A stretch of 64,000 nucleotides of DNA. It comes from Escherichia coli. GTDB taxonomy: Bacteria; Pseudomonadota; Gammaproteobacteria; Enterobacterales; Enterobacteriaceae. The stretch lies in NCBI RefSeq assembly GCF_003018115.1, contig NZ_CP027457.1, one strand, 5' to 3'. Positions 36,901-39,900 of this stretch are shown here, piece after piece. The position numbers are program-made. Each line of letters starts with the position of its first letter. Positions within the stretch are counted from its first letter, which is position 1.

Positions 36901-39900
36901 ATTCCTATTGGTATTACAATGAATGGATAATAGCAATGCGTATTAACCATGGCAATAGCAAAACGTGTTTTGACCATCAATACGCAAGCGTATAAATTAA
37001 AACTTATGAAAAAAGAAACTCTTGCTGATCGCTTAAACCTAGCGATGGAACAATCTGGGATGTCTCAAGGCGCTCTTGCAAAGGCGTCTGGCGTAGCTCA
37101 ACCCACAATCTGGAGACTGACAAGCGGCAACGCGCGCGGCTCAACAAAAATTGTTGAAATAGCGAATGCATTGGGTGTTCGAACAGAGTGGCTCTCATCA
37201 GGCATAGGCCCGATGAGAAATGACGGTCAACAATCAGGGAAGCCTACTGTCAACCATTCCAAATACTTCAAGATTGACGTTCTTGATATAGAAGTGAGTG
37301 CCGGGCCGGGAGTCATCAACCGTGAGTTTGTAGAAGTCCTACGCTCGGTTGAGTACTCGTTTGACGATGCTCGTCACATGTTCGATGGCAGGAAGGCGGA
37401 AAATATCCGCATCATTAACGTACGTGGTGACAGCATGTCAGGAACAATCGAACCAGGTGATCTGCTGTTCGTTGATATCACGGTTAAATCTTTCGACGGT
37501 GATGGCATCTATGCGTTTCTGTACGACGACACAGCCCATGTAAAGCGCCTGCAAATGATGAAGGATAAGCTGTTGGTTATCTCTGATAACAAGAGCTACT
37601 CACCGTGGGACCCGATCGAGAAAGACGAGATGAACCGGGTGTTCATTTTTGGGAAAGTCATCGGGAGCATGCCGCAGACCTACAGGAAGCATGGGTAGGT
37701 AGTATGTAAAGAATTACCTTTGGTTGATTTGTAATAGCTACCGATTACGTTATCGGTAGCTATAAGAAATTTTTATGTCTTTAACTGTGTTTATTTATTC
37801 AATACTAGTTGGACTATAGCAATGAAAGATAACAGACAAAAAGTCGTTCATTATAAAAAAGCAGTAATCCCACACAGCAAATCATCATTACAAAACATAC
37901 TACTTAGTATTATAGGTGAGGGCGGCGTTGCAGAAAAAGTACTTAGTAGACAAGAAAAAATAACACCTTCAGATGAAAATTCGGGGTATCGTTTCTTAAA
38001 TAAAAGCGACACATACAAAACTATACTTTTTGGGCAACTGGTTTTATTTGAAAAAGACAAAAGCCAGTCTCTATTAGAGCTTAGTGATAATGTTAAATTT
38101 TATGACATTAACTCCATCACGTCTAATGATATAATTATTGATGGAGATAAACGTAGTGACAAAAAAAGAGAGTTTGTAGATTCAATTTTATATTTTGGTG
38201 TACTAAACAACCATGTCATGATCGTTCAATCCACATCGCTTCGAGCAAGGGAGCTTGAGGCGCATTTGAATTGGCTAATTAATACATTCACAGATGAAAA
38301 AGAATCTGTGTTAATGCTTCAAGATAAGCCATCCGAAGAAACGATGAAAAAAATGGAGAAAGCACCAGCCAAGAGCATAAAAATTGGTGGATTACCCATT
38401 ACTTCAGAAGTTAAAAATTCAGAGAACCAAACACCCTCCTTTTCAAATGGTTCGGTGAAGACAATAAAATACCGCCCAATAGGGAAAGGAGGTGCGCTAC
38501 TAAAAGCATTTTTTGGCGATAACTGGGCAAATGATATAAACATTAAAGATTCATTAGATGAGGCCAATTTACAAGTAAGCCTCGAGATTACATACTTCAG
38601 AAAAACAAATGATAGCGGTCAAGCTGTTATAGACAGTATTGCTACCTCACTACGACATCTAGATGAGGATGATATTAGCATCAAACTTCAAGGCGGTGGG
38701 GAAATAACGGGAAAAGAGATAAAATTATCCGGAAAAATTAGCGTTGAACATAACAATGGCATTATTGATGAAAATGATTTATTCTTAAAAATGCATAAGT
38801 GGCTGTTCTCAAAACTTGATGCCGGAGAATTGGTTGCAAAATAACCTACCAAAAGGAGGGCGATAATGAAATCGAACATCATCCACCTTATTGGTATGTT
38901 GGTCTTCTATTTTGCTGGTTACTTTTTGTTCAAGTTAGCATTGGGCTATATTACACCGGGTGTTGTCCTAACAGCTCCGTGGGCTGTGGTTGGACTCATG
39001 CAATTGCCATTATCATATTGTATACAAGCCATTTTTAAGGCAAATGAGGCCAATGACCACTCGTCTTTAACCCCTAGTGAGGTTAGGCGATTAGTGCCAA
39101 TAGTCAAATCCAAGAGACTGAAATTGGTTTTATTATTAGCTTTCTATGTATTTTCAACTTTGTTTGTAATCTTGGGGTTAATAGCAAGCACAAATGATCA
39201 AGCCCTACTCTTCAGGGTCTTAAAAATTTCAGGTGGATTACTCTTTATTTCTCTCTATACCAGTGTATTCGTTCATAAAATAATGGTTGAGCTTCAAGAG
39301 TTTAAAGCGTTATTAAACCGAAGAGAATCAGAGAAGAAGGAAAGAGAGTCACTCCTTGATAGATTAAAATGACCCCCCCTCCCCGGCCGTCGTGCCGGGT
39401 TTTCTTTTGCCTCCCCTCATCACACACCGTTCAAAAAACCACCATAACCCCCGCTTCAGTTATCGCTATGCGATGCAAGTCACAAAATTAATTCCTTTTG
39501 CTATCAAACAGTTAATATCAAAATACATCAATCAATAGCAATAAGTATTGATATCACCAATAGCAATAGCTATTATTACCATGTCGCAACAACACAACGA
39601 TACGGCAACCACCTGATTCGCCGTTGCGATGACCGCTTAGATCCGCAGCTTGAATTTCAGCAGGCTCCGGGGAGTGCGAGGGGTGAAGCGGACGCGTGAA
39701 CGTCGGTGTGACCAGCTGAAATCAACTCAACACTTCATACCTCAGTCGCTTCAACGAGGCGGCTTAGTTATGACAACCGGCGGCCATCCACCGCCTGAAT
39801 ACGCGCAGAAGTCTCTATATGTTCAGCAGCCCAGCTTACGGGCAGGAGTTTTTATGGTTCATCAACATTACGGAACTCAGACCGTTAATCGCGGTGCCGT

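Follow-up and report, generated by a model that had tools for sequence, protein, structure and literature searches.

A candidate RexAB-type exclusion pair carried as swappable cargo downstream of cI in an Escherichia coli prophage

We analyzed a 64,000-nt stretch of Escherichia coli DNA (contig NZ_CP027457.1, assembly GCF_003018115.1; hereafter the window, to whose positions all coordinates refer) and focused on two genes, here called A and B, that lie immediately downstream of a cI-type phage repressor gene and on the same strand. The cassette formed by A and B is probably a RexAB-type abortive-infection or exclusion module, encoded by the prophage as exchangeable cargo of the immunity transcript. 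The analogy with RexAB, which had been proposed in a first-pass annotation from position and architecture, is an analogy of fold and architecture; it is supported because the pair occupies the rex position, because a four-helix B follows A directly and because the same slot holds annotated toxin-antitoxin pairs in sister phages, and the predicted fold of A agrees with it. The features needed for the argument are the following:

36949..37698, + strand: cI-type repressor with helix-turn-helix and S24 peptidase parts (phrog_4, transcriptional repressor, E = 4e-70)
37699..39381, + strand: exchangeable low-GC cargo insert, delimited by BLASTN breakpoints, GC content and the alternative cargo of sister phages
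37822..38844, + strand: gene A, open reading frame (ORF) for a 340-aa soluble protein with a predicted RexA/RdgC-like fold
38853..38859, + strand: Shine-Dalgarno sequence AAGGAGG of gene B, read from the sequence, 6 nt before the ATG
38866..39372, + strand: gene B, ORF for a 168-aa predicted inner-membrane protein with four transmembrane (TM) helices (phrog_16807, function unknown)
39382..39409, + strand: intrinsic terminator CCCGGC-CGTCGT-GCCGGG followed by TTTTCTTTTG, found by a terminator scan (stem 39382-39399 plus T-tract)

By analogy with lambda RexAB, Pseudomonas putida RexABpp and Vibrio cholerae Sucellos, we propose the following mechanism. In the lysogen, the maintenance promoter would drive transcription of A and B together with cI. 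A, which probably binds DNA as a dimer, would detect a product or a DNA-protein intermediate of the superinfecting phage and would then engage the cytoplasmic loop or the tail of B. B would oligomerise or open as a pore, with collapse of the membrane potential and of ATP; the infected cell would stop growing, the incoming phage would fail to multiply and the lysogen population would be protected.

The cargo slot between cI and the terminator

Both co-oriented ORFs that the first-pass annotation had placed on the cI strand were recovered at the positions listed above, and the cI transcript is the most likely carrier of the two. The repressor itself gave weak matches to S24/LexA families in NCBIfam; its counterpart in Escherichia phage Perceval is annotated as CI repressor, with a later start corresponding to about window position 37006.

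We compared the window with three sister phages, PhiR47_2, PhiR5_1 and PhiR30_1, which carry the same cI allele as the window or its C-terminal half. Results of BLASTN showed that homology to these phages stops at 37694-37698, that is at the cI stop codon, and restarts at 39379-39382, the breakpoints around the slot agreeing within 4 nt (loci L136, L137 and L138). Since homology breaks at the cI stop and restarts at the first base of the terminator stem, the insert can be delimited as 37699-39381, its first base being the one after the stop codon and its last base the one before the shared stem. The low GC content previously noted for the cassette was also found here, with values of 0.31-0.39 vs about 0.5 in both flanks. 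In the sister phages the same slot is occupied by other cargo, namely GevT/GevA in PhiR47_2 and HipA/HipD in PhiR5_1, both annotated by the depositors as toxin-antitoxin pairs, and two hypothetical genes in PhiR30_1. No publication on GevA/GevT, HipD or the PhiR phages came up in a literature search.

The window does not stand alone in carrying the cassette, as this region is 98.4% identical to phage Perceval. There the counterparts of the pair, PERCE_43/42, are annotated as "hypothetical protein" and "transmembrane protein", and kil, gam, bet and exo come next. The DLP12 prophage of K-12 presumably lacks the cassette region, in agreement with the standard K-12 annotation. Among 5426 complete E. 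coli genomes the cassette is present in 41, whereas the terminator stretch is found in 557, whatever their cargo. Because this stretch is common to 557 genomes and because sister-phage homology restarts there, the terminator is a conserved element of the phage backbone that closes the immunity transcript. Therefore, the strong terminator initially described as bounding the cassette is real, but it does not belong to the cassette.

The other proposed boundary was a hairpin upstream of A:

37734..37763, + strand: perfect 12-bp palindrome or hairpin with a 6-nt loop, ATAGCTACCGAT-TACGTT-ATCGGTAGCTAT, inside the cargo and 36 nt after the cI stop

The palindrome is real and its predicted hairpin is stable (dG = -17.7 kcal/mol); however, it is not a canonical terminator, since no T-run is adjacent to it and the terminator scan did not call it. 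It may stabilise the RNA or be a site of its processing, bind a protein or act as an attenuator.

Two proteins inherited together

As the first-pass annotation had anticipated, A is a hydrophilic protein of 340 aa, with an acidic to neutral isoelectric point (pI) of 6.4 and a grand average of hydropathy (GRAVY) of -0.44. No hydrophobic segment was detected in it, the highest 19-residue Kyte-Doolittle mean being 1.12, and its start codon is backed by near-invariant N-terminal residues across homologues. We modelled A with AlphaFold2 (AF2), obtaining a predicted local distance difference test (pLDDT) score of 70.5, with a good N-terminal beta-rich domain and a good C-terminal part. The top structural match to this predicted fold is lambda RexA, and the next structural neighbour is RdgC. 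According to a study of RexA (PMC11077077), RexA is a structural homologue of RdgC, and its split globular domain is interrupted by a dimerisation domain. The model of A presents the same two-domain plan, with a split globular beta-sheet domain, an inserted dimerisation domain and a C-terminal helix, and the order of its secondary-structure elements fits this plan, with the C-terminal helix last. Moreover, residues 214-272 of A align weakly with the dimerisation domain of RexA (residues 156-208; hhalign E = 0.07). As this domain of RexA forms an inter-subunit sheet, we infer that low confidence in the middle of a monomer model of A is understandable. A is probably a DNA-binding dimer, and by analogy we propose it as the cytoplasmic sensor and activator of the pair.

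B is a basic protein (pI 9.8) with hydrophobic helices at about 5-27, 35-57, 87-107 and 114-137 by hydropathy. The AF2 model is confident (pLDDT 87.8) and contains four long helices, of which the last two reach well past the membrane segments. Hydropathy and model thus agree with the earlier description of a 168-aa protein with four TM helices and a charged tail. The loop between TM2 and TM3 (58-86) is K/R-rich, with 7 K/R, and the C-terminal tail (138-168) contains 9 K/R and 7 D/E; by the positive-inside rule, the N-terminus, this loop and the tail should be cytoplasmic. The loop carries a family motif, S-L-[ST]-x-x-E-x-R-R-[LI], in which E72, R74 and R75 are invariant. Some public records call B as a 207-aa protein (window 38749-39372), which starts further upstream and so overlaps the end of A; we favour the 168-aa form because of the strong Shine-Dalgarno sequence at 38853-38859 and of the homologue alignments. 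By analogy, B is the proposed membrane effector or pore.

We then considered the family to which A belongs. A word index returned 129 homologues, all "hypothetical" and devoid of Pfam domains, from Enterobacterales, Aeromonas, Pseudomonas, Halomonas and methanotrophs. An exhaustive profile search retrieved 785 representatives of 50%-identity clusters at E <= 1e-3, of which 582 at E <= 1e-10. Labelled members are mostly from Gammaproteobacteria, while a 28%-identical match lies in a Cytophagales metagenome-assembled genome, and none of 135 diverse members matched a Pfam family. Among 85 viral loci taken from IMG/VR and genomes, a B-family ORF lies directly downstream of A in 82, the three exceptions being cut or disrupted; the A-B gap in intact loci ranges from -80 to +26 nt. 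The A/B pair was also found in Serratia, Pseudomonas, Methylobacter, Vibrio and Acinetobacter, B was recognisable in every lineage checked and the architecture was constant throughout. Pairwise distances of A and B are strongly correlated (r = 0.947, Mantel p <= 0.001, 61 unique pairs), which shows that A and B are inherited as one unit, without thereby proving a physical contact. B diverges faster, with a mean pairwise distance of 0.67 vs 0.48 for A.

These data bear on the idea that B could be a superinfection exclusion protein of the Sie or Imm type, blocking DNA entry or receptor function without abortive infection or arrest of the cell, with A an accessory or unrelated DNA-binding protein. 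Small prophage-encoded inner-membrane proteins often act as entry blockers, and B, basic and with four TM helices, would fit among them. However, strict pairing and co-divergence with a cytoplasmic protein of RexA fold would not be expected for such a protein, and the part of B outside the membrane consists mostly of long cytoplasmic helical extensions rather than periplasmic loops. We therefore regard an entry block as quite improbable.

Genomic contexts and competing explanations

We also looked at where the pair resides in other elements. A cI-like repressor lies directly upstream and on the same strand in 39 of the 85 loci, for example in Pseudomonas, Methylobacter and an Acinetobacter phage, and the repressors concerned differ widely (jackhmmer E = 1e-123 to 1e-13). 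Copies of A that are 99-100% identical stand behind at least three cI alleles (L008-L016 and L023; E of 1e-123, 1e-119 and 1e-106 against the window cI), suggesting that either the cassette or the repressor was swapped recently between related phages. A second recurrent home is the interval that separates the Q antiterminator from the lysis or stx genes, the pair then being on the opposite strand, as in a Serratia prophage (L002, 6001-7616) and in Shigella phage SfIV (L143, 2401-3823), where B is truncated by IS1 while A is intact. In O157:H7 Stx2a phages (L142, Stx2a_1447, 2492-4055) the pair stands just upstream of the block formed by a methylase, tRNA and stx2A. The cI-adjacent and Q-to-lysis sites are both classic positions for accessory genes expressed in the lysogen. 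A small integrated element of Vibrio alginolyticus carries the pair at its edge. Two tandem 354-aa genes precede a single B in this species (L140, 2473-3537 and 3809-4873); the second belongs to the A family and, if the first does as well, this would mean a local duplication of the proposed sensor.

This distribution is relevant to the question whether the pair mainly serves the lysis-lysogeny decision of its own prophage, with B modulating or sequestering A and phage exclusion secondary or absent. The predicted RexA/RdgC DNA-binding fold of A and the adjacency to cI in 39 of 85 loci speak for it, and lambda RexA is described in PMC11077077 as biasing the bistable switch toward lytic growth independently of RexB. 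On the contrary, many members lie far from the immunity region, either in the Q-to-lysis or stx slot on the opposite strand or in non-lambdoid Vibrio elements, which is hard to reconcile with a role in the switch, and B is retained so strictly that an effector acting at the membrane is indicated. We consider such a role unlikely as the main function of the pair.

The pair could also be a toxin-antitoxin or addiction module, of reversed or sensor-free logic, in which one partner is toxic by itself and the other restrains it; this would stabilise the prophage, and any defense would come from shut-off of host gene expression. The GevT/GevA and HipA/HipD pairs in the slot of the sister phages would agree with this, as would the tight coupling of the two genes, with gaps of 0-26 nt or overlaps, and gp30/gp31 of mycobacteriophage Butters is an example of a Rex-like pair with reversed roles (PMC12894663). 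Neither protein, however, is similar to toxin-antitoxin families in Pfam, NCBIfam or PADLOC, and the intact A next to the IS1-cut B of SfIV indicates that A alone is tolerated, although B as the toxin would still be compatible with this observation. Taken together, a toxin-antitoxin module appears rather improbable.

Finally, all database names of the family are "hypothetical", so that the pair could be ordinary cargo with no role in defense, such as a function in membrane stress or in transport together with a regulator, riding in moron slots. The top structural match of A to RexA goes against such a view, as do the exclusively prophage or mobile-element context in slots expressed in the lysogen and the fact that similarity to transporters was found only at the level of chance matches. 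Ordinary cargo is, in our estimate, very improbable.

Several observations weigh against reading the cassette as a RexAB-type module. The Pfam family of RexA, PF15969, did not match A even at E <= 10 and matched 0 of 135 family members. The PADLOC models for RexA and RexB did not match the family at E <= 1, while in the positive control they detected lambda RexA (9e-110), RexA relatives of 23-30% identity (4e-66 to 4e-108) and lambda RexB. Profile comparison by hhalign of the A family with RexA alignments of 25 sequences, or 42 in an extended set including distant members, gave collinear but not significant matches (E = 0.07-0.8), and the B family compared with an 18-sequence RexB alignment was likewise not significant (E = 0.15-0.21). 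Concerning the structures, the model of A has no more than moderate confidence and is poor at residues 191-252, its global TM-scores to RexA are low (0.23-0.32), and a Foldseek search of the PDB with the model of B retrieved generic helical bundles only, there being no RexB structure to compare. In addition, a RexA-like fold is no proof of defense, as RexA also acts on the lambda switch and RdgC works in recombination, and the palindrome that separates A from cI could reduce read-through into the cassette. As the sequence and profile tests are negative, we do not file the pair in the RexA and RexB sequence families; our claim is that of a predicted RexA-fold protein with a four-TM partner in the rex position. 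An "RRL" string common to B and to the TM2-TM3 loop of RexB was treated as chance, considering that it is not conserved in the RexB family.

Beyond the terminator, the window continues with one more feature of the immunity region:

39548..39576, + strand: candidate pL-type early promoter TTGATA-17-TATTAT (promoter scan, 10 of 12 matches to the consensus)

This candidate rests on the consensus match, and homologues of kil, gam, bet and exo lie downstream of it. Repeated CAATAGCAATAGC-type motifs surround it (39500-39580) and could be oL operators of this immunity type. Inside A, promoter-like sites such as 38108-38135 were no commoner than in shuffled sequence (12 found vs 9.5 expected) and were therefore not taken as an analogue of pLIT. 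The replication genes are preceded by a second low-GC stretch (0.32-0.39) at 33000-34000, probably a further accessory insert. An EmrE multidrug transporter and a YbcK serine recombinase of DLP12 type are annotated in Perceval beyond its replication genes.

Comparison with RexAB, Sucellos and other Rex-like systems

The description of the pair as uncharacterised, made in the first-pass annotation, holds in so far as all databases call both proteins "hypothetical", but it is probably overstated, as RexAB-like systems beyond the reach of Pfam have been validated since 2024. The comparison with RexA and RexB profiles, PADLOC and Foldseek that it had suggested gave a mixed result, with the predicted fold of A closest to RexA and with neither significant sequence homology nor a PADLOC match. 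Searches of Pfam, NCBIfam and PADLOC found no match for the pair, PHROGs returned families of unknown function only, and sequence and profile searches of the PDB found none.

The annotation gap is large, as RefSeq, UniRef, PHROGs, Pfam, NCBIfam and PADLOC 2.0 leave both proteins "hypothetical" despite 785 representatives. The family occurs in medically relevant temperate phages, including O157:H7 Stx2a phages (by stx2), Shigella phage SfIV and phages of Acinetobacter baumannii and Klebsiella, and its recognition as RexAB-type would give these genes a testable function. Moreover, the exact slot from the cI stop to the terminator is a practical place to seek more lysogen-expressed defense genes in this phage group.

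We compared the pair first with lambda RexAB (references Pfam PF15969, PADLOC PDLC02339/02340 and PDB 8TWQ). Both present the repressor, the pair, a terminator and pL (here a candidate) on one strand, in the order cI-rexA-rexB-tImm-pL of lambda. Both pairs consist of a soluble protein followed directly downstream by a four-TM membrane protein, both lie between cI and the terminator and pL, where co-transcription with cI would be expected, and both RexA and the model of A have RdgC as a structural neighbour. They differ in size, as A, with 340 aa vs 279 aa for RexA, is 60 residues longer, with a variable and poorly modelled middle, and as B, with 168 aa vs 144 aa for RexB, has a charged terminal helix of about 30 residues that RexB lacks. 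The host range of A/B is also much wider, including Enterobacterales, Pseudomonas, Acinetobacter, Vibrio, Aeromonas and methanotrophs.

Sucellos (SclA/SclB) is a validated system encoded by a cassette of the V. cholerae N16961 superintegron, VCA0367-0368 (Darracq et al., bioRxiv 10.1101/2024.07.02.601686). In that study, Sucellos resembles RexAB in structure without matching the Pfam RexA domain, both genes are needed for defense, SclB is a predicted transmembrane pore and the behaviour is abortive; its homologues outside Vibrio are mostly in prophages, "often in Salmonella". Compared by description, Sucellos and A/B share the structural likeness to RexAB, the absence of a Pfam RexA match, two adjacent genes and a membrane partner, and the A/B family has Vibrio members (P0200, V. 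alginolyticus). They differ in that the V. cholerae pair is an integron cassette, whereas A/B is here phage cargo next to cI. Neither a Salmonella nor a V. cholerae member was found among labelled matches or cultured phages, and a scan of genomes with family motifs gave 21 loci, none from V. cholerae. A chimeric query built from seven diverse family members returned the same 12 phage records, without a Salmonella or Vibrio phage. On the published description, we lean toward the A/B family being the Sucellos family. One homologue of 32% identity, in an Acinetobacter phage, already bears the label "DefenseFinder protein", although PADLOC 2023 has no model for it. Damona, a DefenseFinder system common in Acinetobacter prophages, was rejected as its identity, because Damona is a single gene with Pfam DUF6602 and A has no Pfam match.

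RexABpp is encoded by prophage P1 of P. putida (PP_5643/PP_5644), downstream of a CI-like repressor, and over-expression of RexApp leads to RexB-dependent growth arrest and membrane damage (PMC12894663). The prophage origin and the position downstream of a CI-like repressor are common to both pairs; on the contrary, RexApp was found from RexA by HHpred (98% probability), whereas the A/B family was not in the comparisons run. We tested identity of the two by the termini of RexApp and RexBpp deduced from the published cloning primers (MHRTATFV.../...VYNKQSRLMV; ...LYYLGYKLQE), which were absent from all 321 proteins compared and differ from the family consensus termini. Judged by these termini, RexABpp is apparently a lineage different from A/B.

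Actinobacteriophages carry Rex-like pairs as well, Sbash gp30/31, CarolAnn gp44/43 and Butters gp30/31, which provide heterotypic defense (PMC12894663 and PMC11077077). Like A/B, they combine a cytosolic RexA-like protein with a membrane protein, and they lie in or close to the immunity region of temperate phages. They differ, by description, in their Gram-positive hosts, in the absence of sequence relation and in the reversed roles of Butters.

A tentative extension of the RexAB-type reading, possible yet doubtful, is that A/B forms a distinct and very large lineage of an ancient superfamily, made of a RexA/RdgC-fold sensor and a four-TM effector, by now too divergent in sequence to be matched to lambda RexAB, RexABpp and possibly Sucellos. 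Such a lineage would have its own trigger specificity, with the loop motif and the long C-terminal helix of B serving as docking and gating elements for A. If this were true, the occurrence of the pair directly upstream of stx2 in O157:H7 Stx2a phages and in A. baumannii prophages would imply a widespread and so far unannotated contribution to competition between prophages and to failures of phage therapy.

In conclusion, the pair is a real, widespread and unannotated family and not a new kind of system, its novelty being less than claimed because Sucellos and RexABpp, RexAB-like systems beyond Pfam, are already validated. The category to which it belongs is not new, and what triggers systems of the RexAB type has been asked for 70 years. 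The finding nonetheless supports the view that the RexAB arrangement, a sensor with a membrane effector, is far commoner than sequence searches suggest.

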